Shown in pieces: positions 22,872 to 64,000 of a DNA stretch of 64,000 nucleotides. The position numbers and the translations under genes were made by a program. Every line of letters starts with the position of its first letter. The stretch's first letter is position 1. Under the pieces are notes generated by a model that was not told where the DNA came from, ran no database searches, and saw nothing but the letters and a program-made list of their open reading frames with translations. Source of the stretch: Mustelus asterias (taxonomy: Eukaryota); contig NW_027590120.1 of the NCBI RefSeq assembly GCF_964213995.1, positions 1,116,001 to 1,180,000 on the forward strand, read 5' to 3'.

Positions 22872-25800
22872 AACATAGAACATAGAACATAGAAAGTCAC
22901 AGCACAAACAGGCCCTTCGGCCCACAAGTTGCGCCGATCACATCCCCACCTCTAGGCCTATCTATAGCCCTCAATCCCATTAAATCCCATGTACTCATCC
23001 AGAAGTCTCTTAAAAGACCCCAACGAGTTTGCCTCCACCACCACCGACGTCAGCCGATTCCACTCACCCACCACCCTCTGAGTGAAAAACTTACCCCTGA
23101 CATCCCCCCTGTACCTACCCCCCAGCACCTTAAACCTGTGTCCTCTCGTAGCAACCATTTCAGCCCTTGGAAATAGCCTCTGAGAGTCCACCCTATCCAG
23201 ACCCCTCAACATCTTGTAAACCTCTATCAGGTCACCTCTCATCCTTCGTCTCTCCAGGGAGAAGAGACCAAGCTCCCTCAACCTATCCTCATAAGGCATG
23301 CCCCCCAATCCAGGCAACATCCTTGTAAATCTCCTCTGCACCCTTTCAATGGCTTCAACATCTTTCCTGTAATGAGGTGACCAGAACTGCGCGCAGTACT
23401 CCAAGTGGGGTCTAACCAGGGTCCTATAAAGCTGCAGCATTATCTCCCGACTCCTAAACTCAATCCCTCGATTAATGAAGGCTAGTACGCCATACGCCTT
23501 CTTGACCGCATCCTCCACCTGCGAGGCCGATTTAAGAGTCCTATGGACCCGGACCCCAAGGTCCTTCTGATCCTCTACACTGCTAAGAATGGTACCCTTC
23601 ATTTTATACTGCTGCTCCATCCCATTGGATCTGCCAAAATGGATCACTACACACTTATCCGGGTTGAAGTCCATCTGCCACTTCTCCGCCCAGTCTTGCA
23701 TTCTATCTATGTCTCGCTGCAACTTCTGACATCCCTCCAAACTATCCACAACACCACCTACCTTGGTGTCGTCAGCAAACTTACCAACCCATCCCTCCAC
23801 TTCCTCATCCAGGTCATTTATGAAAATGACAAACAGCAAGGGTCCCAGAACAGATCCCTGGGGCACTCCACTGGTCACTGACCTCCATGCAGAGAAAGAC
23901 CCCTCCACAGCCACTCTCTGCCTTCTGCAGGCAAGCCAGTTCTGGATCCACAAGGCAACAGCCCCTTGGATCCCATGCCCTCTCACTTTCTCAAGAAGTC
24001 TTGCATGGGGGACCTTATCGAACGCTTTGCTGAAGTCCATATAGACCACATCCACCGCCCTTCCTTCGTCAATGTGCTTGGTCACATTTTCAAAGAACTC
24101 AACCAGGCTCGTAAGGCACGACCTGCCCCTGACAAAGCCGTGCTGACTACTTTTGATCATACTAAACTTCTCTAGATGATCATAAATCCTGTCTCTCAGG
24201 ATCCTCTCCATCAACTTACCAACCACTGAGGTTAGACTCACCGGTCGGTAATTTCCCGGGCTGTCCCTGTTCCCTTTCTTGAATATAGGGACCACATCCG
24301 CAATCCTCCAATCCTCCGGAACCTCTCCCGTCTCCATCGACGATGCAAAGATCATCGCCAAAGGCTCCGCAATCTCCTCCCTCGCCTCCCACAGTAACCT
24401 GGGGTACATCCCATCCGGTCCCGGCGACTTACCAACCTTGATGCCATTCAATAGTTCCAACACATCCTCTTTCTTTATGTCCACATGCTCGATCCTTTCT
24501 GTCCTCCGCAATCCAGCAGTACAACCACCCAGATCCCTTTCCACCGTGAATACCGAGGTAAAGTATTCATTAAGCAGCTCCGCCATTTCTAACGGTTCCG
24601 CACAAACTTTTCCCCCTTCACCTTTTAAGGGTCCTATGCCTTCACATCTCATCCTTTTACTCTTGACATATTTGTAGAAAGCCTTGGGATTCTCCTTAAT
24701 CTTACCCGCCAAGGTCTTCTCATGACCCCTTCTCGCTCTCCTAATTTCCTTCTTAAGCTCCTTCCTACATCGCGTATACTCCTCTAAATCCTTAACACCT
24801 CCTAGCTCTCTGAACCTTCTGTACGCCTCTCTTTTCTTATTCACCAGGTTCATCACAACCTTCGTGCACCACGGTTCCCGTACCCTACCAACACCCCCCT
24901 GTCTCATCGGAACGTTGTCATGCAGAGCTCCAGACAAACATTCCTTGAAAATCCTCCACTTTCCTTCGGTACTTTTCCCCAAGAATGCCTCCTTCCAATT
25001 TACCCGTCTAATTTCCTCCCTGATGACACTGTATTTCCCTTTACTCCAGAGAAACACTTTCCTAGCCTGCCTGACCCTATCTCTTTCCAATGCTATCGTG
25101 AAGGAGATAGAATTATGATCGCTATCCCCAAGATGTTCACCCACCGAGAGATCCTCCACCTGTCCAGGTTCATTAGCCAGCACCAGATCAAGAACAGCCT
25201 CTCCTCTAGTAGGCTTATCCACATACTGTGTCAGGAAACTCTCCTGGACACACCTAACAAACTCCTCTCCATCCAAACCCCTAGCCCTAGGGATATTCCA
25301 ATCTATGTTTGGGAAATTAAAATCTCCCATCACGACAACTCTGTTATTCCTACATCTCTCCAGGATCTGTTTCCCCATCTGCTCCTCAACATCTCTGTTA
25401 CTATTGGGCGGCCTATAGAAAACACCCAGCAAAGTTACCGACCCCTTCCTATTCCTAACCTCCACCCACAGAGATTCCGTAGTCAGTCCCTCCACGGCGT
25501 CCACCTTCTCTACAGCCGTGACACTATCCCTGATCAACAGTGCCACTCCCCCCCCTCTCTTGCCTCCCTCCCTGTCCTTCCTGAAACATCTAAAACCTGG
25601 CACCTGAAGCACCCAGTCCTGTCCCTGAGACATCCAAGTCTCCGTAATGGCCACCACATCACAATTCGAAGCAGCAATCCACGCTCCAAGCTCATCCACT
25701 TTATTCACTACACTCCTGGCATTAAAATAGACACATCTCAGACCTTCAGCCTGAGCACTTCCCTTCTCCCTCACTCGTCTAACCTCCCTCTTACCCTGTC

Positions 25801-26297
25801 TACATTCCTTATCTATTTGCGAGCTAACCTCCTCGCTCTCAGTCCCCTCATTTCGATTCCCTCCCCCCAACCTTTCTAGTTTAAAGTCTCACCAGTAGCC
25901 TTAGCCAACCTTCCCGCCAGGATATTGGTCCCCCTGGGATTCAAGTGCCACCCGTCTTTTTTAAACAGGTCACACCTGCCCCTAAAGAGGTCCCAATGAT
26001 CCAAGTACCCAAATCCTTGTCCCTTGCTCCAGTCCCTCAGCCACGCATTAATTCTCCACCGATTCCTGTTCTCACTCTCCCGCGGCACAGGCAGCAATCC
26101 CGAGATTACTACCTTTGCATTCCTCTTTCTCAGCTGTCTACCCAACTCCCTATATTCTCTTTTCATGACCCCTTCCCTCTTCCTACCGATGTCAGCAGTA
26201 CCTATATGCATCACGACCTTGGGCTCCTCTCCTTCCCCCTTCAGGATTTCTGGGACTCGACCAGAGACTCGACCAGAGACATCCCGGACCCCTGCAC
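22872..26297 (-). mobile_element. Young CR1 LINE, 5'-truncated within ORF1, with intact ORF2
   Basis: (ctatgtt)n tail at 22872-22893, ORF1 esterase end at 25876-26214, uninterrupted ORF2. Confidence 0.95.
22958..25870 (-). CDS. CR1 ORF2 protein (APE endonuclease and reverse transcriptase), 970 aa open frame
   Basis: YFNARS, ITETW, YRPP, GDFN, LDL, SDH (APE); YRPVSLTS, QHGF, DFSKAFDKV, GVPQGSVLGP, FADD, RPHLEY (RT). No stops. Confidence 0.92.
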   Translation of the reverse strand: MGGGNRNEGTESEEVSSQIDKECRQGKREVRRVREKGSAQAEGLRCVYFNARSVVNKVDELGAWIAASNCDVVAITETWMSQGQDWVLQVPGFRCFRKDREGGKRGGGVALLIRDSVTAVEKVDAVEGLTTESLWVEVRNRKGSVTLLGVFYRPPNSNRDVEEQMGKQILERCRNNRVVVMGDFNFPNIDWNIPRARGLDGEEFVRCVQESFLTQYVDKPTRGEAVLDLVLANEPGQVEDLSVGEHLGDSDHNSISFTIALERDRVRQARKVFLWSKGKYSVIREEIRRVNWKEAFLGKSTEGKWRIFKECLSGALHDNVPMRQGGVGRVREPWCTKVVMNLVNKKREAYRRFRELGGVKDLEEYTRCRKELKKEIRRARRGHEKTLAGKIKENPKAFYKYVKSKRMRCEGIGPLKGEGGKVCAEPLEMAELLNEYFTSVFTVERDLGGCTAGLRRTERIEHVDIKKEDVLELLNGIKVGKSPGPDGMYPRLLWEAREEIAEPLAMIFASSMETGEVPEDWRIADVVPIFKKGNRDSPGNYRPVSLTSVVGKLMERILRDRIYDHLEKFSMIKSSQHGFVRGRSCLTSLVEFFENVTKHIDEGRAVDVVYMDFSKAFDKVPHARLLEKVRGHGIQGAVALWIQNWLACRRQRVAVEGSFSAWRSVTSGVPQGSVLGPLLFVIFINDLDEEVEGWVGKFADDTKVGGVVDSLEGCQKLQRDIDRMQDWAEKWQMDFNPDKCVVIHFGRSNGMEQQYKMKGTILSSVEDQKDLGVRVHRTLKSASQVEDAVKKAYGVLAFINRGIEFRSREIMLQLYRTLVRPHLEYCAQFWSPHYRKDVEAIERVQRRFTRMLPGLGGMPYEDRLRELGLFSLERRRMRGDLIEVYKMLRGLDRVDSQRLFPRAEMVATRGHRFKVLGGRYRGDVRGKFFTQRVVGEWNRLTSVVVEANSLGSFKRLLDEYMGFNGIEGYR

Positions 26298-36928: not shown

Positions 36929-37774
36929 ATGGAAGGAAAAAGCACCGCTCACAGTGGGGAGAAACTGTACACGTGTTCCGTGTGTGGACGAGGATTCAGC
37001 CGTTTATCTGGCCTGTCAAAACATAAATGCAGTCACGGTGGGGAGAAATTGTGGAAATGTGAGTGTTGTGGCAAGGGATTCAGTTCCCCATCAGAGCTGG
37101 AAATTCATCGACGGTGTCACACTGGGGAGAGACCGTTCACCTGCTCCGAGTGTGGGAAAGGATTCACTCAGTTGTCCCACCTGGTGAGACACCAGCGAAT
37201 TCACACTGGGGAGAGACCTTTCACCTGCTCTGTGTGCAAGGTGGGATTCACTCAGTCAGCCCACCTGGTGTCACACCAGCGAGTTCACACGGGAGAGAGA
37301 CCATTCACCTGCTCCGAGTGCAAAATGGGATTCACTCAGTCAACCCACCTGGTGACACACCAGCGAGTTCACACTGGGGAGAGACCATTCACCTGCTCCG
37401 AGTGTGGGAAGAAATTCAGCCGGTCGTTTCACCTTCTGATTCACCAGCGAATTCACTCTGGAGAGAGACCATTCACCTGCTCTGAGTGTGAGAAGGCATT
37501 CATTACATCAACAGAACTGTTGACACACCAGCGGATTCACACTGAGGATAACCCGTTCACCTGCTCCAAATGTGGGAAGGAATTCGCTAACTCTTCGAAC
37601 CTGATCTGCCATCAACGGATTCACACTGACGAGAGACCTTTTAAATGCCCAGACTGTGGAAAGTGCTTTAAAAGTTTTGGGAACTTGATGACCCATCAAC
37701 GGGTTCACACTCGAGTCCGTTCAGATGCTTTCACTGTGGGACTGAGTTCAGACAATCATCTCCTCTCACTGTAA
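36929..37774 (+). CDS. C2H2 zinc-finger protein E (9 fingers, then frameshifted tail)
   Basis: ATG at 36929, [16 protein letters not shown]...; canonical linkers. Two further decayed fingers run out of frame to about 37865. Confidence 0.82.
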
Positions 37775-48056: not shown

Positions 48057-48730
48057 TGTGGCACAGTGGTTCGCACTGCTGCCTCACAGTGCCAGGGTTC
48101 GACTCCAGCCGTGGGTGTGTGACTGTCAGTGTGGAGTTTGCACAGTAAGAAGTCTCACAATATCAGGTTAAAGTCCACTAAGTTATTTGGAATCAATGCA
48201 AATTACTGCGGATTCTGGAATCTGAAACCAAAAGAGAAAATGCTGGAAAACCTCAGCAGGTCTGGCAGCATCTGTAAGGAGAGAAAAGAACTGACATTTT
48301 GAGTCCAGATGACCGTTTGTCAAAGCTGCTCCTTCATCAGCTCTCCAAAAGCTCGTAGTTCCAAATAACCTGGTGTTGTGAGACTTCTTACTGTGCCCAC
48401 CCCAGTCCAACATCTCCACCTCAGGTGTGGAGTTTGCACAATCTCCCCCAGTCTGTGTGCATTTCCTCTGGGTGCTCTGGTTTCCTCTCACTGATGTGGA
48501 GATGCCGGCGTTGGACTGGGGTAAACACAGTAAGAAGTTTAACAACACCAGGTTAAAGTCCAACAGGTTTATTTGGTAGCCACACAGAAGAAAAAGGTCA
48601 GGATGGGGATTCGCAGGGTCAGTGCGTGGGGTTACTGGGATAGGAGGTGAGCCTGGGAAAGATGCTCTCAGAGTCAGTACAGACTCAATGGGTAAAATGG
48701 CCTCTTCCTGCACTGTCAGGATTCTATGAT
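48057..48730 (+). mobile_element. HE1 SINE fragmented by several Penelope-like pLTR insertions
   Basis: HE1 pieces at 48057-48143, 48425-48492 and 48600-48730 alternate with pLTR family-1 and family-2 pieces. Confidence 0.65.
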
Positions 48731-49153
48731 TAGTGAATTACGGTGAGCAACTTTTGAATAGAGGGGTTTCTGGGGCGCAGAGCATTGTGGGAAATGTGAC
48801 TGCCATTAGTCAGTGCCTGACTCCAGATGTTTCATTATAGACTGAGGGCAAGTCAGCAACCTGAGTCCTCAATAATGTTTGTAACTCTCACAGGCTGCCC
48901 AGTCTGCTGAATATCTCGATGATCCTCAGTTCCTGGCCTCCTGCGTGTTTTATTTTTATTGTTGCTTCGGTCTGGACTCTATTCATCACCTGTCTCTATG
49001 GGTTTTCTCTCAATCCCCTTTTTTGTGTTTTGAATCAGCTTCAAAGGGACTAGAAGGGGACGATTTGCAGTCAGGAAACTGAAAGTAAATATCATATCAG
49101 GAACTGCCAGAGTCGTCTAATTTATCATAACTGAATATCAGTGGATTTTGAAC

Positions 49154-50359
49154 ATGGAAGGAAAAAGCACTATTCACAGTGGGGAGAATCCGTACACGGG
49201 TTCTGTGTGTAGACGAGGCTTCAGCCGATCCTCTGGCCTGTCAAAACGTAAGTGCAGTCACTCCATGGAAAAACTGTGGAAATGTGTGGACTGTGGGAAG
49301 GAATTTAATTCCCCATCCCAGCTGGAAACTCATCGGCGCAGTCACACTGGGGAGAGGCCGTTCACCTGCCCTGAGTGTGGGAAGGGATTCACTCAGTCAT
49401 CCCACCTACTTACTCATCAGCGAGTTCACACTGATGAGAGACCTTTCCAATGCTCAGACTGTGGGAAGTGCTTCAAAAGTTCTTGGGAACTGATGTCCCA
49501 TCAACGTGTTCACACTGATGAGAGACCATTCAGGTGCTCCCACTGTGGGATTGGGTTCCAGCATTCACATAACCTCACTGTACACCAGCGAGTTCACACT
49601 GGGGAGAGACCATTCACCTGCTCCGCGTGTGGAAAGGGATTCACTCGGTCATCCCAACTATTGACACACCAGCGAGTTCACACTGGGGAGAGACCTTTTA
49701 AATGCTCTGACTGTGAGAAGTGCTATAAAAGTTCTGATGAACTGATGTCCCATCAACGTGTTCACACTGATGAGAGACCATTCAGGTGCTCTCACTGCGG
49801 GGCTGGGTTCAAGCGATCATATGACCTCATTCCACACCAGCGCATCCACACTGGGGAAAGGCCATTCACCTGCTCCGAGTGTGGAAAGGGATTCACTCGG
49901 TCATCCCGCCTGCTGCAACACCAGCGAGTTCACACTGGGGAGAGGCCATTCACGTGCTCCTACTGTGGGAAGGGATTCACTCGGTCATCCCACCTATTGA
50001 CACACCAGCGAGTTCACACCGGGGAGAGACCTTTTAAATGCTCTGACTGTGAGAAGTGCTATAAAAGTTCTGATGAACTGATGTCCCATCAACGTGTTCA
50101 CACTGATGAGAGACCGTTCAGGTGCTCTCACTGTGGGACTGGGTTCAGGCGATCATATGATCTCATTCTACACCAGCGCACCCACACTGGGGAAAAGCCA
50201 TTCACCTGCTCTGAATGTGGGAAGGGATTCATTCAGTCCTCCACCCTGCTGAGACACAAGCGAGCTCACACTGGGGAGAGGCCATTCAGCTGCTCTGAGA
50301 GTGGGAAGAGATTCACTCGGTCATCCCACCTACTTAGACACCAAAGAATTCACGAGTAA
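49154..50359 (+). CDS. C2H2 zinc-finger protein G (12 canonical and 2 degenerate fingers), intact
   Basis: ATG at 49154, open frame to TAA, TGERPF/TDERPF linkers, aataaa at about 50471. Confidence 0.9.
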
Positions 50360-50559
50360 CCACAGTGATTGGAATCTGCTGCTAATCCTATCCAGGACTG
50401 TAATATGTTCATTGCGTTTGTTTTTGTTGATGTTAATGAACTCCAGCCAGTTATACTGTTTAATATTCTGAATAAAAGTCAAATAAATTATCTTTGTGTT
50501 CAGTACTGTGAATCTTTTTAATATCATCAGCACAACTGAATTCCTTTTGAGTTGCTCTC

Positions 50560-50995
50560 CCATTGTCCCTCATCCAGCTTCACCTCCCCACAAGTGCTCA
50601 TTGGGAATAAAACTCACAATCTTCTTTGTCACTAAGTTTGAGACAATCCAATCAGCTGTCTCTACTGCTTCCCTCCTTCCCCTAACCCACTGGAACAAAC
50701 CTCCTCTAACGCTCCCCTTTGTCTGAGCTCTGAACTCTCATCTTGCTGCAGTTTCTCTCCTGCCTCCCCTCATGTCCTCTTAGAGCTCATCTTGCCCATG
50801 AGACCCATCTCTTGATCCCTCAATCCTATTCCCACTGTCCTACTGACAGCACAACTTCTCCATATCAGCTGATATTGTCAATATCTTCCTCTCCTTCAAA
50901 TCCGATATCATCACCCACTTCTCAATAAAATATCTTTGACACATGCCCTTGTAAACTACCATCCCATCTCCCTTTCCTCTCTAAAGTCCTTGAAT
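50560..50995 (+). mobile_element. L2-type LINE relic downstream of locus G
   Basis: FFVTKFETIQSA homology, paralogous to 44200-44380. Confidence 0.55.
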
Positions 50996-51317
50996 GTTTT
51001 ACCTTCCACATATTGTAACTTGTTTTCCCTTTATCATTGTGTATAGTAAAGTTTATTTTGTTTGTGCAGAATCTGTGGAATCTTTTGCCTTTATTCACTT
51101 GTTAAGTGTCTTGAATCTCCACCGCTGTCAATTTTATACAAACTCACCCAAATCTAAAAACTATTTTGTGGGAATTGGGGGAATAGAACAGAAGATGGGT
51201 TTCTGCTGCTAAGTTACAATCCCAGCTGATGTTACTTCTGGACTTCTGGACAGGAAGGTCCCAGAATAAAATCCTGGCTCAATTGACCATAACTTTTACC
51301 TTTTTGTTTTAGAAATG

Positions 51318-54300
51318 TTTAATGATGGATTCCAGCATTTTCCCAACTACGGATGTTAAGCTAACCGGGCTGTAGTTACCCGCCTTTTGTCTACCTCCTT
51401 TTTTAAACAGTGGCATCACATTAGCTGTTTTCCAATCAGCTGGCACATCCCCAGAGTCCAGTGAATTTTGATAAATTACAACCAACGCATCTGCTATTAC
51501 TTCTGCCATTTCTATCAGGACCCTGGGATGCATTCCATCCGGGCCCGGGGACTTGTCTACCTTTAGTCCCATTAGCCAACCAAGCACTACCTCTTTAGTA
51601 ATAGTAATCGTTTTAAGGACCTCACCCCCTATAGTCCCACAACCGTCAATTTTCGGTAAGCTATTTGTGTCCTCTACCGTGAAGACCGACACAAAAAACT
51701 TGTTTAAGGCCTTGGCCATTTCCTCGTTTCCCATTATTCAATCCTCCTTCTCGTCTTCTAAGGGTCCAACATTTACTTTAGCTACTCTTTTCCTTTTTAT
51801 ACATTTGTAAAAACTTTTGCTATCAGTTTTTATATTTTGTGCTAGTTTAGTTTCATAATCTATCTTTCCTTTCTTTCTCGCTTTCTTAGTCGTTCTTTGT
51901 TGTTTTTTAAAGCTTTCCCAACCTTCTAATCCCCCACTAGTTTTGGCCACTCTGTACGCATCGGTTTTTAATTTAATACTCTCCTTTATTTCCTTAGTTA
52001 TCCACGGCTGGTTATCCCTTTTCTTACATTCCTTCTTTAACATAGAAACATAGAAAACTGCAGCACAAAACAGGCCCTTCGGCCCCACAAGTTGTGCCGA
52101 ACATATCCCGACCTTTTAGGCCTACCTATAACCCTCCATCCTATTAAGTCCCATGTACTCATCCAGGAGTCTCTTAAAAGACCCTACTGACTTTGCCTCC
52201 ACCACCACTGACGGCAGCCAATTCCATTCGCCCACCACCCTCCATGTGATAAACTTCCCCCGAACATCTCCCCTGCACCTACACCCCAGCACCTTAAACC
52301 TGTGTCCTCTCGTAGCAGCCATTTCCACCCTGGGAAAAAGCCTCTGAGAGTCCACCCGATCTATGCCCCTCAACATCTTATATACCTCTATTAGGTCTCC
52401 CCTCATCCTACGTCTCTCCAAGGAGAAAAGACCGAGCTCCCTCAGCCTATCCTCATAAGGCATGCCACTCAATCCAGGCAACATCCCTGTAAATCGCCTC
52501 TGCACCCTTTCAATCTTTTCCACATCCTTCCTGTAATGAGGCGACCAGAACTGAGCACAGTACTCCAAGTGGGGTCTGACGAGGGTCTTATATGGCTGCA
52601 TCATTATCCCCGGACTCCGAAACTCAATCCCTCGATTGATAAAGGTCAGCACACCATACGCCTTCTTAACCACCTCCTCTACTTGTGGGGCCGATTTTAG
52701 AGCCCTATGGACCCGGACCCCAAGGTCCTTCTGATCCTCTACAGTACTAAGAGTCTTTCCCTTTATATTGTACTCCTTCATCCCATTTGACCTGCCAAAA
52801 TGGACCACTACGCATTTATCTGGGTTGAAGTCCATCTGCCACTTCTCTGCCCAGACTTGCATCCTATCTATGTCCCTCTGTAACTTCTGACATCCCTCCA
52901 GACTATCCACAACCCCACCAACCTTCGTGTCGTCGGCAAACTTACCAACCCATCCCTCCAATTCCTCATCCAGGTCATTTATGAAAATGACAAACAGCAA
53001 GGGTCCGAGAACAGATCCCTGGGGCACACCACTGGTGACCAACCTCCATTTAGAAAAAGACCCATCTATACCTTCATCTTGCCTCCTTTGGGCAAGCCAG
53101 TTCTGGATCCACAGGGCAGCAGCCCCTTGGATCCCATGCCCTCTCACTTTTTCGAGAAGCCTTGCATGGGGGACCTTATCAAACGCCTTGCTAAAATCCA
53201 TATAAACCACATCTACCGCTTTCCCTTCGTCAATGTGTTTAGTCACATTTTCGAAGAACTCCACCAGGCTCGTAAGGCACGATCTGCCTGTGACAAAGCC
53301 ATGCTGAGTATTCTTGAGCATACTAAACCTCTCTAAATGCTCATAAATCTTGTCCCTCAGGATCTTCTCCATCAGCTTACCAACCACTGAGGTTAGACTC
53401 ACCGGTTGGTAATTTCCTGGGCTATCCCTATTCCCCTTCTTGAAAATAGGAACCACATCCGCAATCCTCCAATCCTCCGGCACCTCTCCCGTCTCCATCG
53501 ACGACGCAAAGATCATTGCCAGAGGCTCTGCAATCTCTTCCCTCACCTCCCACAGTAACCTGGGGTACATCTCATGCGGACCCGGCGACTGATCTATCTT
53601 GATGCCATTCAAAGATTCCAGCACAACCTCTTTATTAAAGTCCACATACTCAATCTTTTCAGTCCACCGCAAGCCCACAGTACATCCATCCATGTCCTTC
53701 TCCTCTGTGAAAACCGAGGCAAAATACTCATTAAGCACCTCTGCCATTTCTACTGGTTCCGTACTGATTTTCCCGCCTTCACCTTTTATAGGCCCTATTC
53801 CTTCACGTCTCATCCTTTTACTCTTCACATATTTATAGAACGCCTTAGGGTTTTCCTTAATTCTACTTGCCAAGGCTTTCTCGTGACCCCTACTGGCTCT
53901 CCAAACTTCCTTCTTTAGTCCCTTCCTACAAGCCGTATACTCTTCTAAATCCCTATCTTCGCCAAGCTCTCTGAGCCTTTTGTACGCTTCCTTTCTTCTC
54001 GACTTGGTCCCGCACAGCTTTCGTGCACCATGGTTCCTTTAACCTACCAACTCCTCCCTGTCTGCTCGGAACATTGTCCTGTAGAACCCTAGACAGACAT
54101 TCCTTGAAAAACTGCCACCTCTCTTCAGTAGATTTCCCCGAGAATCCCTCCTTCCAATTTACTCCTCTAATTTGCTGCCTTATGTCTTCATATTTCCCCT
54201 TTATCACAGGAATATATTTTTGCTGACTACTGAGAAAAATCTCCTTAAATATCCGCCACTGTTGCTCAGCTGTCCGACCAACTAGTCTGCGCTCCCAGTC

Positions 54301-56384
54301 TACATTAGCCAATTCTGCCCTCATCCTATTGTACTCCCCTCTGTTCAAGCAGAGGACACTGGTTTGGGACCCTATTTTCTCTCCCTCCATTTGTATTAGA
54401 AATTCAACCATATTGTGATCACTCATTCCAAGAGGATTCCTCACAAGAAGATCATTAATTTTACCTGTCTCATGACACAGGACCAAATCCAAGATAGCTT
54501 GCTCCCTCGTAGGTTCTGTAACATACTGTCCGAGGAGACTATCCCGACAGCATTCTAAGAACTCTTCCTCAAGTCCACCGTGTCCGACTTGAGTCAACCA
54601 ATCAATATGCAGGTTAAAATCCCCCATGATTATTGCTGTTCCGTTTTTGCACGCATCCATTATTTGCTTTTTTGTAGCCCGACCCACCTCAAAGTTATTA
54701 TTTGGGGGCCTATAGACCACACCCACCGGTGACTTTCTCCCCTTACTATTCCTTATCTCCACCCACAACGATTCCACATTCTGCTCCTGAGAGCCTATAT
54801 CGTCTCTCACTACCGCCCTGATGTTATCTTTAATTAACAGAGCTATCCCACCTCCTTTTCCTTCCTGTCTATCCTTCTGAAATGTCTGATACCCCTGGAT
54901 ATTCAGTTCCCAGTCCTGGTCACCCTGCAACCACGTTTCTGTAATGGCCACTAGATCATACCCATTTGTACTGATTTGTGCCATCAACACATTCACTTTG
55001 TTTCAAATGCTACGTGCATTCAGATAAAGTGTCTTTATGCTGGCCTTTATATGGACCTGATTTGTTAGTGCATTCTTTTGATTGCACGCTCTGTCCCTAC
55101 CTGTCGCAAACTGGTTATCCTTCCCCAGACCATCTCCTTGCAGTGCGTTAACCACCTCCCTTCTTGTGTTTGTCACCTTTTTCACTCTGCCTGAGCCCTT
55201 GACTCCTTTAACTCGGTGAATGTCCTCATCATTAACCCTCACTCGTACCCTCTCCTTTACCTTTGATTTTGTAATTCCCCATACCCCTGAACCCTCCCTC
55301 CCTCACACCCCCCCCTCCCCACCTCACTATTCAGTTTAAAGCCCTATTTACAGCCCTGGTTATACGATTCGCCAGGACTCTGGTCCCAGCATGATTCAGA
55401 CGAAGACCATCCCATCTGAACAGGTCCCATCTTCCCCAATACTGGTGCCAATGTCCCATGAATTCAAACCCATTCCTCCCACACCAATCTTTGAGCCACA
55501 CATTTACCTCCTTAATCTTATTGACCCTACGCCAATTTGCTTGTGGCTCAGGTAGTAATCCAGAGATTACCACCTTGTTGGTTCTGCTTTTTAATTTGGC
55601 TCCTAGCTTTTCATACTCCCTCTGCAGAACCTTTGTTCCTGTTCTGCCTATGTCGTTGGCACCTACGTGGACCACTACAACTGGATTCTTACTCTCCCAA
55701 TCCAAGTTCCTCTGCAGCCCAGATGAGATATCCTGGACCCGAGCACCAGGCAGGCAACACAACCTTTGGTATTCTCAATCTTGGTCACAAAGAACAGTGT
55801 CAATGCCCCGAACTACACTATCCCCAATTACCACTACATTTCTTTTTTCTTCCTCCACCTGAACGGCTCCCTGTACCACGGTGCCGTGGGCAGTTTGCTC
55901 ATCCTCCTTGCAGCCCCCGTTCCCGTCCACACTGGGAGCAAGAATCTCAAACTTGTTGCACAGATTCAGGGACTGAGGCTCTTGCAACTCTACCTTCTGG
56001 ATCCCACTTCCTGCCTTGCTCGCAGCCACACCCTCTTGTCCCTGACCCCCGGCTGAATTAGTTAGTCTAAGGGGTGTGACTGCCTCCTGAAACACAGCGT
56101 CCAGGTAACTCTTCCCCTCCCTGATATGTCGCAGTGTCTGAAGCTCAGACTCCAGCTCATCAACCCTGAGCCGGAGTACCTCAAGCAACCAACACTTACT
56201 GCAGACATGCTCACTGGGAACCACAGTGGGGTCCACCAGCTCCCACATAATGCAGAAACAACACATTATTTCCCAAGAGGAAGTAAAGTTTTGCCCCCTC
56301 TCCTCGGGAATGAGAAATTCCTCCTGAATACACTCAACAAATTTTGCTCCATCCAACCGTCTAATACGATGGCTGTCCCAGTCA
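51318..56384 (-). mobile_element. CR1 host element (ORF1, APE, start of RT) containing a nested younger CR1
   Basis: ORF1 CCFCIMWE...CSKC and esterase at 55331-56270, APE at 54204-55030, continuation at 51318-52039 (KKECKKRD...PVSLTSVVGK). Confidence 0.88.
52040..54198 (-). mobile_element. Nested young CR1, 5'-truncated, with 583-aa open RT frame (52122-53873)
   Basis: (ctatgttt)n tail; cttta duplicated at 52035-52039 and 54199-54203. Same subfamily as the element at 1-2131. Confidence 0.9.
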
Positions 56385-56430
56385 ACCTCTAATGCCCAAA
56401 GCGAAAATCATGCCCCTAGACCAACGAGCC
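56385..56430 (-). pseudogene. tRNA-Pro(TGG) 5' fragment
   Basis: GGCTCGTTGGTCTAGGGGCATGATTTTCGCTTTGGGCATTAGAGGT matches the vertebrate tRNA-Pro 5' two-thirds. The anticodon stem is mispaired and the T-arm is replaced by CR1 sequence. Confidence 0.8.
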
Positions 56431-57517
56431 TACGCAACCGGCGCTTTCACCGAAATATAACTGGTTTGCTTGTATCCAAAGCAGCTCAGAAATCCTTGGC
56501 AAAAGCCTGAAATTGTTGAACAAACGCAGCACGTTAGTATTTTGCTAACTCGACTGTTTGGAACTGGGTGCTGTCGTGTATAAAATACAGATGTTACCCG
56601 CTACACTACACAAAGAATGTCGAGTGCCAAACTGAATGAACGTGAATATTTTCTTATGAGTCCACCTCCTCCAAAGACAACCTTTTTCCAGATATGGGTC
56701 ACTGAGATTCTGTCACTCAGCCACTGTCCTCAGCAGTAAAGACAGAAGGAGAAGCGGTGACTTTCCAATATTAAATTATACAATTATATAAATCGCGGCA
56801 TATATTAAATTTATAATGTTAAATTTTACTCTCTGAAAAGAGGAAAATTCTAAACATATCAACTGAGTCGCCTTTGTACCTTCTTGTTTGTAAGCAAAAT
56901 AAACCAAATTAGTCTGTTGATCCCTGGCACTATTCTGATTTATAACCATAAGCCTTTAAGACGATAAGATATAGGAGTAGCATTAGACCATTCGACCCAT
57001 CAAGTCTGCTCCGCCATTCAATTGTGGCTGCTAAGTTTCTCATCCCCATTCTCCCGCCTTTTCCCGGAAACTTTGATCCCCTTACAAATCAAAAACATAT
57101 CTACTCAATGACCTGACCTCCACATCCTTCTGTGGCAATGAATTCCATCGATTCACCACCCACTGGCTGAAGAAATTCCTCCTCATCTCTACTTTAAAGG
57201 ATCGTCCCTTTACTCTGAGGCTGTGCCCTTGGATCCTCGTCTCTCTGACTTACACGGATATATCTCCCCCAGCACCGCACTTTTCCCAAAGTCTTGGTAT
57301 GCTCTGGACTTCGGTGTACCCGGGATTTGAACAGAGAATTCCAGGAATGATGCCCGCAGGTTTAGCATCATTCTACGATGTAAGTAGGAAACGTAACAAG
57401 GACTTTCTACAGAGCACCAATTCGGATTCCTGGGCAGCATTTGCGCCTTGGTATGTGTTGGAGTAAACCCTGAATCGACTCAACAGCCAAATGCGAACTT
57501 GCATTAAACAACATTTG

Positions 57518-57533
57518 TCAGCAGAGGGCGCCA
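57518..57533 (+). promoter_or_regulatory. CTCF-like motif upstream of the V gene
   Basis: tcagcagagggcgcca matches the CCAGCAGRGGGCGC core apart from the first base. Confidence 0.55.
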
Positions 57534-57817
57534 ATCTCGAGCCCGGTTTTGGAGTGGGGAGGGATGCTGGGGGGGGGGGGGGGGGGGGGGAGGGGCGGCG
57601 CTACAATCTCACGTGACATTATCACTGGAGCCTGTATGGATGGTAGGCTGCTGAGGTCACAATAGACTCCACTTCCCCTCCCCACAATCACACCCACACA
57701 GACAAACTGACTCACACTCACTCACACTGCAATCAACGGAGCAGAGTCTGGGTTCCCGCTCTCTTTCTCACTCTCTGACTCCTCCATTCTCATTCACTGA
57801 AATAAATCCACTCGGAC

Positions 57818-57851
57818 ATGTTTCTGATCATTCTGGCGGCGCTCTTGCACA
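57818..57851 (+). CDS. TCR V-gene leader exon (MFLIILAALLH-S)
   Basis: ATG, hydrophobic peptide, phase-1 donor a|gtaagt. Confidence 0.85.
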
Positions 57852-58012
57852 GTAAGTACCGGATAACGTTCATCAAACCACGGAAACATATTTATACACA
57901 AAGATGCCAATTTAATTAACCATCAAAAATATCCATGTGAGGTGTAGATGGGAGGTTCCACAAACTATAAATTTACATGAACTCTTGATATTTAATTCCT
58001 CTACCTTTACAG

Positions 58013-58305
58013 GTGGACTGTGCGCAGATCCAGTAACTCAGTCACCGGTGACAATAACAGCATCAGAAGGGGATTCGGTGCAGTTGGATTGTAACTATAC
58101 AGACAAGGATATGAGCTACATGCAATGGTATCAGCAGAAACCGGCACAGCCACCGAGACGGGTTATGACCAATGCATTAGTAGTGGAGGAAAATGAAGTT
58201 TCAGGACGATATCTGGCGGCTACTGACAAGTCCACACAGAGCGGCTCCCTCAATATAAGCGCCCTCAGTTCGGAGGACGGAGCGGTCTATTACTGTGCAG
58301 TGAGG
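58013..58305 (+). CDS. T-cell receptor alpha/delta-like variable (V) gene segment, open frame
   Basis: Acceptor ctacctttacag|gt joins the leader in frame. GLCA-DPVTQSP...EGDSVQLDC...WYQQKP...GRY...GSLNISAL..ED.AVYYCAVR has both Ig cysteines and the tryptophan. Confidence 0.88.
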
Positions 58306-58344
58306 CACAGCGTTAGATTACAGCTGAAACCCCGTACAAAAACC
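58306..58344 (+). other. Recombination signal sequence, 23-bp spacer
   Basis: Heptamer cacagcg at 58306-58312, spacer 58313-58335 (23 nt), consensus nonamer acaaaaacc at 58336-58344. Confidence 0.92.
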
Positions 58345-58774
58345 TCAGCGCGTATTTACAACTCCATGAAGATGTTTTGATCACGTGTTCACGAAGGCGG
58401 CGATTCTATTTACCGGACAATTTGACCTTGTTCAAATCATCATAGAAGCACTTTGGTAAATCTCGAGACTAAACTCCATGCCGCGATTTATATAGTAAGC
58501 AGATACCAGGAGTATCGAGCTATCAGCTGAAGGATGCGGTCAGAAGTGGAGGTAATATAGCAGAAAATTACCGGCTGTTCATCCAGAATTGTTAACTCAG
58601 ATGAGCCCACGGACACAGACTCCTCGGCATTCGTCCGATAACTCAATGCAGAATGGATCAAAGTCTGCTGAAGTTCATAACAAATGAGATGTAGAATAAC
58701 CGCCACATAGACTCACTTAGCAACACGACTATTATTATACATCCGGGACAGAGACTCACCTCGCAGCACGAAGA

Positions 58775-59400
58775 TAGTCTATTCCCGCAGCTGACATTGG
58801 TGTATTGTGTGGTGGTGAACTGCCTTCTTGTGGTCCCTGATGTGCAGGTACACACACTGTGCTGTTACTGAGGGAGTTCCAGTGATTTGACCCAGTGACC
58901 GTGAAGGAACAACGATATATTTCCATGTAGGGATGTAGAATAACTTGGAAGGGAACCTCGAGGTTGTGGTGTTCCCATGTGCCCGCTGCCCTTCTTCTCC
59001 TAGATGGCAGTGCTCGTGTGTTTGGATTGTGCTGCCCAAAAAAAAAACCTTGGTGAGTTGCTGCAGTGTATCCTGCAGATGGTGCACACGGCTGTCACTG
59101 TTCGTCTGTGGTGGCAGGAATGAATGTTCATGCAATGGGTAGCAATCAAGCGGGCTGATTTGTCCTGCATTCTGTTGAGCCTCTTGAGTGTGGTTGCAGC
59201 TACACTCATCCAAGCAAGTAGAGGGTATTCCATCTCACTCCTGACTTGTACCTTGTAGATGGTGGACAGGCTTTGGGGAGTCAGGAGGTGAGTTACTCGC
59301 CGCAGGATTCCTAACCTTTGATCAGCTCTGGTAGCCACTGTATTTATATTCCTGGGTCCAGTTCAGTTTTCTGTCAACTCCCAGGATGTTGATGGGGTGG
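58775..59400 (-). mobile_element. 3' part of the same LINE family as 28545-29400
   Basis: QRLGILRRVTHLLTPQSLSTIYKVQVRSEMEY in ORF 59000-59338. Confidence 0.75.
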
Positions 59401-60075
59401 GGGTTTAATGTCTATTAAGTCCCATCTTATGTGTACCCATATACAGATGGGTACACATAAGATGGTTGCCTGGCACACAAACAGTCACCCGGGAAAGAGA
59501 CATTAAAGTCAAATCGGTTCTATAGTGTCGTCCCTCTATTCTGGGGTTGTGTGCCGTGTAAACCCTTTCAGTATTCCTGATGGCAGGTGATGGGAACGGA
59601 ACAGATGCCTGGTCAACAATACTGCAGAGGTCAATGGCAATCCGCTGGAATAATTTGAAATAAACAGTCACAGAATGATAAGGACATTCATGGTCACCAA
59701 TGCCCTCTTAGGGCATGGTAACTGGAAGAGCAGGAGGTGGATGGCACAAGAGGCCTAGAGAGTGGACTCTATAAATCATTGCATTCCAATGCCTCTGGGC
59801 AGACTGGGCAACAATGTTTGCACAACGTTTCTCATCAATAAACAAATCTACTTAAAAATAACGGCGTCCACAGTTCCTTATTTGTTAACCAACAAAACCA
59901 CAATCCTACACTAGAAGTTGATGCATGTACTTTACATTGTGATTATATTAATCCGTCAAGCCTGCTTCGACAGCACCTTGCGAACCCGGAATCTCTTCCA
60001 TCTAGAAGGATAAGTGGAACAGCTGCATGAGAACACCCCTTCAAGCCGCACACCATCCTCATTTTGAACCATATC

Positions 60076-60408
60076 ATAGAATCATAGAAACGCTACAGTG
60101 CAGAAAGAGGCCAGTTGGCCCATCGAGTCTGCACCGACCACAATCGCACCAAAGCCCAACCCCATTTCCCTGCTAATTTTACCCACTAATCCCTCTAACC
60201 TACGTATCTCAGGACACTAAGGGGCAATTTTTAGCATGGCCAATCAACCTAACCCGCACATCTTTGGACTGTGGGAGGAAACCGGAGCACCCGGAGGAAA
60301 CCCACGCAGACACGAGGAGAATGTGCAAACTCCACACAGACAGTGACCCGAGCTGGGAATCGAACCCAGGTCCCTGGAGCTGTGAAGCAGCAGTGCTAAC
60401 CACTGTGC
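60076..60408 (-). mobile_element. HE1-type SINE
   Basis: Near full-length reverse copy. Confidence 0.85.
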
Positions 60409-60743
60409 TCTACGTAACGCGGCTCCCTTGCGTCAAAATCCTGGAATTGGTTTTCGGTTTAAGATTACGGGCAGAGGACAACAAATCAGAAAAGTATGAA
60501 AGGAGAATTGAAGGAAAGTGAGACATTACGAGTGCGAAATACAAAGTCAAAAGCTGTGAGAAAGACAGAAAGGAAGAGATTCAGAAATGACCCTGAATGC
60601 ATTGTGCTTTCAAATTACTCATATTTCACTCACGTCTATTTATATAGTTGCATTGTTTGAAAACACGTCTCTCAGTCAAAGCCCGCTGGAGACGGCCCAT
60701 CGACAACCTTGCACTTGCGGACAGCGTCACGTAACCTGAGTCA

Positions 60744-60757
60744 CCGCCAGAGGGCGC
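60744..60757 (+). promoter_or_regulatory. CTCF-like motif
   Basis: ccgccagagggcgc, in the same orientation as the motif at 57518. Confidence 0.55.
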
Positions 60758-60891
60758 AGTCGTCACATATTTCTCCCAACTTGAAATGATGGCGACAAAA
60801 CCTCTGGCACCATTCGCATATCGCTGCTATTGGCAGTAACCACACAGTCCCATTTTTCTGCTCTCACCTCATGTATCCTGTATTAGTAAAT

Positions 60892-61185
60892 GGGCGACAC
60901 GGTGGCACAATGGCTGGCATTCCTGCCTCATAGCAAAGGGGGCCCAGGTTCAATTCCAGCCTTGGGTAACTGCCTGTGTGGGGTTTTCACCTTCTCCCCG
61001 ACTCTACGTGCGTTTCCTCCCACAGTCCAAAAATGTGCAGGTTAGGTGGAATAGCCATGTCCCTTAGTGTTAGGGGGATTAGGAGATTAACACGCGGGGT
61101 TACGGGGATAGGGCCTTGGTGTGACTGTTGTCGGTGCAAGCTTAATGGGCTGAATGGCCTCCTTCGGCACTGTAGGGATTCTATG
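60892..61185 (+). mobile_element. HE1-type SINE
   Basis: gggcgacacggtggcacaatgg head, gggattctatg tail. Confidence 0.8.
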
Positions 61186-62087
61186 AAGATACTTCTGTCG
61201 ATTTACTTGTTTGGCACTGGTTGTATCAGAAATGCGGGTGGATCTATGAGCGTTGTGGGGGCGTGAATCTGTGTTTCCACTCCAGGAGAATATTTCCTGA
61301 GCTGCAACGTTACTGATTCGGGAGAAGGACCTCTGCTCGTCAATATATCACTTTTTCACTTAGCGTTTCCTTCCCAATTAAAAGTAAAGAATATGCTGTT
61401 CTCCTGACTGCTGTAATTTAGGTATTACTATTAATCAAATGATGACTACTCTTTTTAAAGAAAAATATTGATTGGGTGTCGGTCACAAGTCCACGATTTT
61501 GTCGATCACTAATTGTCCTCGAAACGGGCTGGGCTATTTGAGAGTTAGTTATGTGACTACAGTTGTTCTGTAGTCACACACAGACCAGGCTAGGCTAGGA
61601 AGGCAGATTTCCTTCCACAAAGTGCATTAGTGAACCAGGTGGATTTGCAGTGATCGCGTTCGGAACGATCATTGCGAGTAGCTTTCAATATCAATTAATC
61701 ACATTTAAATTTAACCAGCTGCTGGGGTAGAATTTTGACTACTTTTCTCGTAAATCGAATTTAAATGTAACCAGTTGATATGATGGGATTGAACTACTTT
61801 TCCCAAAGCATCATTCTGGGTCCGTGAATTGCTTTTCCAGTGGCCCCATGTTGACAATGATTAAAAAGAAAAAGCGGAAGTTCTTGAAGTTGACACTTCC
61901 CAGTATATTATATGAGATGGGGCCACAACTACCAAGTGCAACTTGTTGTCCCTGATGGACCTTTGAAGAAAAGGCAATGTCATAATTAGCTGCACTATAA
62001 TTTGATATCCTAATCCTACTGATTTCAGGCATGGTCAAGTTTCAGTACAACATCCACAGTACACTTTTTACATTATCTCAGGAACAA

Positions 62088-63740
62088 TAAACATAGAACA
62101 TAGAACATTACAGCGCAGAACAGGCCCTTCGGCCCACGATGTTGCACCGACCAGTTAAAAAAAAAACTGTGACCCTCCAACCTAAACCAATTTCTTTTCG
62201 TCCATGAACCTATCTACGGATCTCTTAAACGCCCCCAAACTAGGCGCATTTACTACTGATGCTGGCAGGGCATTCCAATCCCTCACCACCCTCTGGGTAA
62301 AGAACCTACCCCTGACATCGGTTCTATAACTACCCCCCCTCAATTTAAAGCCATGCCCCCTCGTGCTGGATTTCTCCATCAGAGGAAAAAGGCTATCACT
62401 ATCCACCCTATCTAAACCTCTAATCATCTTATATGTTTCAATAAGATCCCCTCTTAGCCGCCGCCTTTCCAGCGAAAACAATCCCAAATCCCTCAGCCTC
62501 TCCTCATAGGATCTCCCCTCCATACCAGGCAACATCCTGGTAAACCTCCTCTGCACCCTCTCCAAAGCCTCCACATCCTTCCTGTAATGTGGGGACCAGA
62601 ACTGCACACAGTACTCCAAGTGCGGCCGCACCAGAGTTGTGTACAGTTGCAACATAACGCTACGACTCCTAAATTCAATCCCCCTACCAATAAACGCCAA
62701 GACACCATATGCCTTCTTAACAACCTTATCTACTTGATTCCCAACTTTCAGGGATCTATGCACACATACACCTAGATCCCTCTGCTCCTCCACACTATTC
62801 AAAGTCCTCCCGTTAGCCCTATACTCAACACATCTGTTATTCCTACCAAAGTGAATTACCTCACACTTCTCCGCATTAAACTCCATCCGCCACCTCTCGG
62901 CCCAACTTTGCAACCTGTCTAAGTCTTCCTGCAAACTACGACACCCTTCCTCACTGTCTACCACACCACCGACTTTGGTGTCATCAGCAAATTTGCTAAT
63001 CCACCCAACTATACCCTCATCCAGATCATTAATAAATATTACAAACAGCAGTGGCCCCAAAACAGATCCCTGAGGTACACCACTTGTAACCGCACTCCAT
63101 GATGAATATTTACTATCAACCACCACCCTCTGTTTCCTATCCGCTAGCCAATTCCTGATCCAATTTCCTAGATCACCCCCAATCCCATACATCTGCATTT
63201 TCTGCAGAAGCCTACCATGGTGAACCTTATCAAACGCCTTACTAAAATCCATATATACCACGTCCACTGCCTTGCCCCCATCCACCTCCTTGGTCACTTT
63301 CTCAAAAAACTCAATAAGGTTAGTAAGGCACGACCTACCTGCCACAAAACCATGCTGACTATCACCTATCAATTCATTACTCTCCAAATAACTATAAATC
63401 CTATCCCTTATAATTTTTTCCAACATCTTGCCGACAACAGAAGTGAGACTCACCGGTCTATAATTCCCGGGGAAGTCTCTGTTCCCCTTCTTAAACAATG
63501 GGACAACATTCGCTAACCTCCAATCTTCTGGTACTATACCAGAGGCCAACGACGACCCGAAGATCAGAGCCAGAGGCTCTGCAATCACTTCTCTTGCCTC
63601 CCAGAGAATCCTTGGATAAATCCCATCCGGACCAGGGGATTTATCTATTTTCAGACCCTCCAGAATATCCTGCACATCCTCCTTATCAACTGTAATACTG
63701 TCTATTCTACTCCCTTGCAACCCAGTGTCCTCCTCAGCTC
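62088..63740 (-). mobile_element. 5'-truncated young CR1 with 512-aa open RT frame (62182-63720)
   Basis: Full RT motif set without stops; (ctatgtt)n tail at about 62089-62107. Confidence 0.92.
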
Positions 63741-64000
63741 ACTGATCGACTTCCCTGTTCCTTTAGTAAAACAACGAAGATTGCAAAGTATCTCACAGCC
63801 CATCCGCTGATATCTGAACATTCGAACACAAAAATTAGGCTGCCTGCAATCTGCTCTACCATTCAGTCAGATTACAGTTCATCTGATCTTCCGTTTAAAT
63901 CCACTTTGCTGCCTTGATCTTCTTGAACCGTGGCATAAATTTTAGTTAAAATGTTGGTTTCACTCAGCTTTAAAATTATTCTGTGGCCCTCAGCCTCCAC

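Follow-up and report, generated by a model that had tools for sequence, protein, structure and literature searches.

The V segment at positions 57818-58344 of the window (the whole stretch of 64,000 nucleotides analysed, C88:1,116,001-1,180,000, on an unplaced contig of 2.94 Mb) is an ordinary V gene in an unusual locus. Its anatomy is that of a TCR alpha/delta V segment, intact and in germline form. Segmental duplication has carried its family, along with a ZNF gene, through an antigen-receptor complex rich in ZNF and IgM. The explanation that we favour with good confidence is that this segment, one of at least 80 copies, is likely joined over a long range to a distant J-alpha (or D-delta). 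That the window copy itself is used in rearrangement is only slightly more likely than not.

Anatomy and class of the V segment

All the elements named in the initial annotation are borne out on the plus strand. As read from the sequence, a leader exon of 11 codons and one base with a phase-1 donor (57818-57851, ATG at 57818) is followed by a phase-1 GT-AG leader intron of 161 nt (57852-58012). The open V exon of TCR alpha/delta type (58013-58305) has the Cys, Trp and Cys hallmarks, carries T8G9 after the final Cys codon, ends in YYCAVR and is recognized by Pfam as a V-set domain (E=2.4e-16). It stops, without a G strand, at a 23-RSS (58306-58344) composed of the heptamer CACAGCG at 58306 (one mismatch), a 23-nt spacer and a perfect nonamer, ACAAAAACC, ending at 58344. 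This is the sole RSS with at most one mismatch in total within the 64-kb window, and directly before it lies the only D-x-A-x-Y-Y-C motif found in the six frames of the window. Since the best RSS of the window adjoins its only V-type terminal motif, the V call is not a matter of chance. Three further RSS-like sites were rejected: no V frame precedes the 22-spacer site at 62055, which is either a chance match or a relic, and the minus-strand 23-RSS-like sites at 36956 and 49181 lie inside ZNF coding repeats.

The layout of the leader is identical in all 20 closest paralogs, and an NCBI gene model (P0005) carries a leader of the same family. The leader intron is 161 nt long in the 12 close paralogs compared and 164-174 nt long in six distant ones. 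Among 23 distinct family sequences, the window V has two private residues, R45 and M47 of the mature domain, both beside CDR2. The heptamer begins at +13 from the Cys codon in the window V and in all family members examined, as against mostly +15 in zebrafish V genes according to a passage of PMC10322711. The CDR1/CDR2 region, earlier described as short, turned out to be of average size: at 11 and 55 residues, its Cys-Trp and Trp-Cys spacings fall in the middle of the range for V domains taken from this genome, the others having 10-14 and 49-62. With a CDR1 of about 6 aa, the window V shares both domain type and CDR1 length range (5-8 aa) with the nurse shark TRAV families V1-V7, V9 and V10, as far as these are given in the excerpts of Ott et al. 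(2018, PMC5931798). A single-sequence AlphaFold model of the V was poor (mean pLDDT 59), and no fold information was drawn from it.

The region 5' of the leader has its own conserved elements. A predicted CTCF-like core motif (57519-57530, plus strand, a motif match only) lies 299 nt 5' of the ATG and is oriented with the V. It is the single match in the 64-kb window, against 0.23 expected per shuffle, and is kept in 19 of 20 close paralogs and in 1 of 10 distant ones. A palindrome in the promoter (57609-57617, plus strand), presumably an E-box/CRE-like element, is present in 20 of 20 close paralogs, and an octamer scan detected no Ig octamer within 600 nt 5' of the ATG. In the mouse Tcra/Tcrd locus, too, CTCF sites are found at V promoters (PMC5859386, in part), so that the likeness consists in a CTCF or CTCF-like site 5' of the V promoter; the shark site differs in being a sequence motif match alone, kept mostly within one subfamily.

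A split leader with a phase-1 GT-AG intron, a Cys-Trp-Cys V-set exon and an RSS with a 23-nt spacer are features of TRAV/TRDV genes, and leader, V-set exon and 23-RSS support the proposed TRA/D-type, recombination-competent anatomy. Alpha and delta V genes are described as not separable from genomic sequence alone (PMC10322711, in part). The family also deserves to be called divergent, since none of the other V families sampled exceeds 42% identity to it. In a tree of 41 rows, one of which (L138_m702) is junk and roots the drawing, it forms a clade of its own (support 100/99) that includes a catshark sequence and stands apart from the lambda-like, V9-like and supporting-V groups; the backbone is too poorly resolved to place it among the V families. 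Relatives with more than 50% identity turned up only in catsharks, a Mustelus model and one further record, the named ones being catshark and Mustelus proteins. A search of 50%-representative proteins returned mostly multi-V gene models, and only P0001, P0002 and P0004 exceeded 50% identity; a PDB sequence search was uninformative for class. By eye, none of the nine nurse shark alpha families, represented by one or two clones each (PMC5931798), looks like the window V, and neighbours of the window V resemble alphaV1/2, V4 and V9. Assignment to NAR-TCR V or supporting V-delta, which would call for a NAR V-D-J unit just upstream and a sequence of the supporting-V family, was rejected, as identity to supporting-type V is 30-37% and no NAR V was matched in 264 kb of C88. 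A non-rearranging VJ gene of the UrIg type, which has V and J in one exon and no RSS (PMC12227049, in part), was likewise rejected, since the V exon of the window ends at an RSS.

Family and neighbourhood of the V segment

The segment had been regarded as a lone V, either the 5'-most one that fixes the boundary of the locus or a solitary orphon; neither description survived a wider search. A truncated V relic with a splice acceptor, about 20 codons and an in-frame stop lies 1.1 kb upstream, at 56684-56764 on the plus strand (84% identical to the next V over 81 nt, E=3e-19; also matched by tblastn), in the 57 kb where no other V had been seen. It belongs to the family of the next downstream V, whose upstream flank occupies 63736-64000 (plus strand, 99% to the flank of paralog L145). 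This next V, at C88:1,180,555 (starting at window-equivalent about 64,550, about 0.55 kb past the window end), is open, has a 23-RSS and resembles nurse shark alphaV4 by eye (clone aV4.1). Within the 264 kb of C88 searched, 12 V-like matches, four open and eight broken or partial, make up one 82-kb island (C88:1,172.7-1,254.9 kb), which the window V opens. The downstream scan suggested as a check yielded further V genes. The reported absence of D, J and C in the 5.6 kb downstream was correct, and holds for 140 kb past the window as well; a 12-RSS J was not found in 146 kb downstream. Two long single-exon hydrophobic ORFs, presumably GPCR-like, lie inside the island on the minus strand at C88:1,201,215 and 1,230,200 (L073, L075-L076).

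As to the proposed boundary, ZNF arrays flank the V island on both sides, resuming after it, and other V genes are present 0.83 Mb upstream on C88 (at 340,765 and 335,858). The last member of the upstream array is a C2H2 zinc-finger ORF with 12 fingers (49121-50356, plus strand). Together with the relic and the window V, this 12-finger exon lies in a segmental-duplication block (48587-62093; 13,518 nt) that is 98.7% identical to C110:466,549-480,051. Since ZNF gene and V recur together on C110, the ZNF edge belongs to a duplicated unit and is not a locus border. The tRNA neighbourhood that had been suggested was not found (ARAGORN, 0 genes; Rfam, 0 matches). The ZNF array also repeats internally, with units of 2 kb that are 83-85% identical (22,879-25,053 and 52,039-54,212; 269-2,133 and 24,393-26,268).

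Counting as family members matches with at least 65% identity over at least 83 of 97 residues among the best 150 scored of 1615 candidates, we found at least 80 copies (80 of the 150 scored matches) on at least 52 contigs and in both orientations. An internal stop is absent from 69 of the 80, three of which are frameshifted, and present in 11. The neighbouring V family gave at least 150 matches genome-wide, all 150 scored places being filled. On the chromosome-scale contig C71 (20.4 Mb) alone there are at least six near-full-length family V genes, on both strands, and the V field also covers 6.5-17.4 Mb of this contig, which bears J-alpha/C-alpha and C-delta. An orphon is a V outside the main locus; the window V counts among the 80 or more members of its family that share a wide V field, and C88, although unplaced, shares its gene mix and near-identical blocks with C71. 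For instance, C88 and C71:16.05 Mb have a 3.3-kb V locus in common at 99.9% identity, and IgM-type C exons, two of them on C88, are spread over the same contigs as the TCR parts, C71 included. We infer, with some reserve, that C88 may belong on the C71 chromosome.

The flanks of the 20 closest loci have identities of 94-99.9%. Among 12 family members, dN/dS is 0.56 in the framework and 1.59 in the approximate CDR1/2. Recent paralogs have a pN not below pS and give no purifying signal, so selection on the newest copies is not apparent. The 20 closest paralogs include three (L005, L007, L011) with an RSS spacer of 22 nt and three (L015, L016, L019) with a common frameshift before the final Cys. 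Contigs of the sequencing runs X1-X4 behave like DNA: intron and flanks are covered, many family variants occur and no V-J joint is seen.

Partner cassettes and organization of the locus

A C-region search of the assembly found two alpha-type constant genes (C546:240,153 and C71:18,419,401), which are 72% identical in protein and 76.5% in DNA and have the published CLXTD-XF signature. They belong to two complete J-alpha/C-alpha cassettes without C-delta upstream, one with 139 J (C546:138,000-242,100) and the other with 34 J (C71:18,370,800-18,431,900). C-delta was not found on C546; on C71, the C-delta nearest to C-alpha is 6.1 Mb away. The gap-free 230 kb upstream of the C71 J-alpha array hold 23 ZNF arrays, no V and no C-delta, and the nearest V among the matches listed is inverted and about 1 Mb away. 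Since the 230 kb before this array are without V, long-range joining is needed at C71 anyway.

Delta-type genes are far more numerous. There are 19 transmembrane exons of delta type, and each has its counterpart among 19 open C-delta Ig exons, which bear the CLXXXFXP signature; at 19 of 19 the same J lies 7-9 kb upstream. The 19 loci, three of them on C71, form nine groups at a 99% cut-off, with identities of 85.5-100%. Upstream stretches of 20-60 kb were read at nine of the 19 cassettes: five of these have a free 12/23 D, four bear what is presumably a NAR-TCR-like V-D-J together with a supporting V, and in four a V is already fused to a D-type RSS. At C71:11,023,400-11,023,820 (L057), a decayed V is joined to a trimmed D-delta with the 23-RSS intact, the coding joint apparently being fixed in the germline. 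The V side of this joint is 88% like the C546 island and the D side is 99% like the C110 cassette over 19.8 kb. This germline V-D-delta joint at C71:11.024 Mb means that a V of the dispersed field has joined a C-delta cassette. Supporting-type V genes ending in a D-type 23-RSS at +30 occur at C436:213,700, C119:553,600 and C96:1,455,100 (L160, L163, L166), which is consistent with germline V-D fusion in NAR-TCR-like cassettes. Three perfect 23-RSS at 61-nt intervals stand behind a supporting-type V at C71:12,229,725-12,229,890 (L063).

Family members share contigs with J/C on C546 and C71, whereas C88 is without a J/C match. On C546, family member L014 is found 106 kb upstream of the J-alpha array and on the J strand; the interval contains a gap of 200 N, both sides of which are homologous to the region upstream of J on C71. 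Moreover, in model P0005 the C-alpha exon of C546 is spliced to a leader and 5' V of the family. This model is a hint rather than proof, as it is computed, matches L014 and not the window copy, and may derive from the very sequence that underlies the assembly; the GT donor that it uses is present in L014 and absent from the window V. Several paralogs, L014 among them, have a cryptic GT donor in their CDR1 that would permit V-to-C-alpha splicing which skips the rest of the V and J, as P0005 does. Of the 171 RSS-bearing J-alpha segments, 162 begin with TG; 158 would yield an open and in-frame junction with the window V through TG microhomology (V T8G9 / J T1G2), a frame published for cartilaginous-fish TRA (PMC10322711, in part). 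Over the 2.94 Mb of C88 there was no match to C-alpha, C-delta or J, the J pattern detecting only about one J in four. In the absence of a TCR C/J match on C88, the nearest partner would be more than 1.17 Mb away or on another chromosome.

By standard V(D)J rules, the probable course of joining is as follows. RAG would pair the 23-RSS of the window V with the 12-RSS of a J-alpha or D-delta on a distant cassette, once folding of the locus in thymocytes had bridged the more than 1 Mb of ZNF and repeat DNA between them, perhaps aided by the candidate CTCF-like promoter site. Whether joining would proceed by deletion or by inversion would be set by orientation. TG microhomology would tilt the outcome towards in-frame CAV-x junctions, and the product would mainly be a TCR alpha chain.

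For the locus as a whole, we lean, by a modest degree, towards a TCR alpha/delta translocon that in this shark lineage has dissolved into a mosaic of segmental duplications. It would comprise two anciently diverged J-alpha/C-alpha cassettes without nested C-delta, some 10-19 D-J-C-delta miniclusters like shark Ig clusters, and one shared V field, hundreds strong, amid ZNF arrays. Segments would be joined by deletion and inversion, and the window V would come from an unnamed family expanded in carcharhiniforms. Scattered TRA/D V genes of sharks were already known; what is newer is the layout of two J-alpha/C-alpha cassettes without preceding C-delta and 19 J-C-delta. Nesting of TRD is what lets alpha rearrangement delete delta. 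If the layout holds, it would offer a direct test of alpha-beta versus gamma-delta exclusion and of allelic exclusion without nesting. It would also test how great a distance RAG can span over ZNF arrays, and whether miniclusters and translocons can turn into one another.

Several published systems bear on this layout. Cartilaginous-fish TCR genes have been described as translocons (PMC6795676, PMC12227049), in which TRD sits nested ahead of the J-alpha array (PMC10322711). In four elasmobranchs, TCR alpha/delta V exons were reported to be scattered between IgM and NAR-TCR units (Flajnik et al. 2025, PMC12227049), and in the great white they extend over 8.6-17.1 Mb in both orientations (Table S1 therein). 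Our locus resembles this complex in having V genes in both orientations over megabases, with IgM and NAR-TCR between, on the chromosome of the TCR alpha/delta C genes. That paper, however, terms TCR alpha/delta a translocon, and in its table one C-delta directly precedes one C-alpha in catshark and stingray, whereas Mustelus has 19 C-delta and two C-alpha, unlinked and with ZNF arrays between. The words 'zinc' and 'ZNF' are absent from the text and supplements of that paper. In the newt, TRD is not nested in TRA and there are two TRA units (Migalska and Babik 2025, PMC12698447, in part). The likeness lies in TRA and TRD being apart and in the duplication of TRA; the newt loci, however, are on different chromosomes with V sets of their own, while the Mustelus cassettes appear to draw on a single V field, with C-delta present many times over. 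Many C-delta, two detached C-alpha or ZNF interleaving in sharks were not found in the literature covered; key shark TCR papers lie outside this coverage and may describe part of the layout.

Alternative explanations

One must ask whether the family is functional and the window copy a mere passenger, that is, a functional orphon that arose as a young duplicate with a ZNF block, too far from J and intact only by virtue of its youth. We regard this as a doubtful but serious possibility, given the 98.7% identity of the 13.5-kb block to C110, the lack of a J or C match on the 2.94 Mb of C88, the eight broken or partial matches among the 12 of the island and the missing purifying signal among close paralogs. 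Nevertheless, the copy has kept its promoter motifs, its leader, its splice sites and its RSS in full, and published shark V fields span about 9 Mb (PMC12227049, in part). The C71 J-alpha cassette, too, has no V in 230 kb and its nearest V among the matches listed is about 1 Mb away; as this cassette is itself far from any V found, distance alone need not exclude use. The family might instead serve mainly TCR delta, each V joining the nearest D-J-C-delta cassette in minicluster fashion. C-delta cassettes and family members do share contigs C106, C110, C119, C138, C436, C90 and C71, a 23-RSS fits the 5' 12-RSS of D-delta, and in the nurse shark 5 of 7 delta families have V genes in common with alpha (PMC5931798, in part). 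We nonetheless judge this unlikely, since the proximal V at the nine of 19 cassettes examined is V9-like, NAR-TCR-like or other, never of the window V family, and the sole model tying the family to a C exon uses C-alpha.

The copy numbers themselves deserve scrutiny. Those of the V family, C-delta and C-alpha could largely be artefacts of uncollapsed haplotypes: unplaced contigs hold most of the copies, identity reaches 99.8-99.97% over 3.3 kb for some pairs, and read-contig depth on C-delta is modest and uncalibrated, with several variant contigs from three runs. This seems rather improbable, however, when the 19 C-delta fall into nine groups at 99%, range from 85.5 to 100% identity and include three on one scaffold at about 97%, when the two C-alpha loci are 76.5% identical with differing J arrays, and when C71 alone carries at least six near-full-length family V genes. 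It is very improbable indeed that the segment is an Ig light-chain V or some V-set gene that does not rearrange. Antibody constructs were the top PDB sequence matches, but multi-domain constructs drove that ranking; the automatic name of a catshark relative is 'immunoglobulin kappa light chain-like', but this model consists of two V exons, with no J or C. A light-chain minicluster has J and C in the same small cluster and an octamer promoter; here, there is no J within 146 kb downstream and no octamer, and the exon ends at an RSS without a G strand. Identity to the lambda-like V genes of C13 is 34%, and these are placed elsewhere in the tree. The lambda-like V exons themselves (C13:61.02-61.12 Mb; L140, L141), included as an outgroup only, are about 19 kb apart, have no 3' RSS and are probably germline-joined light-chain genes.
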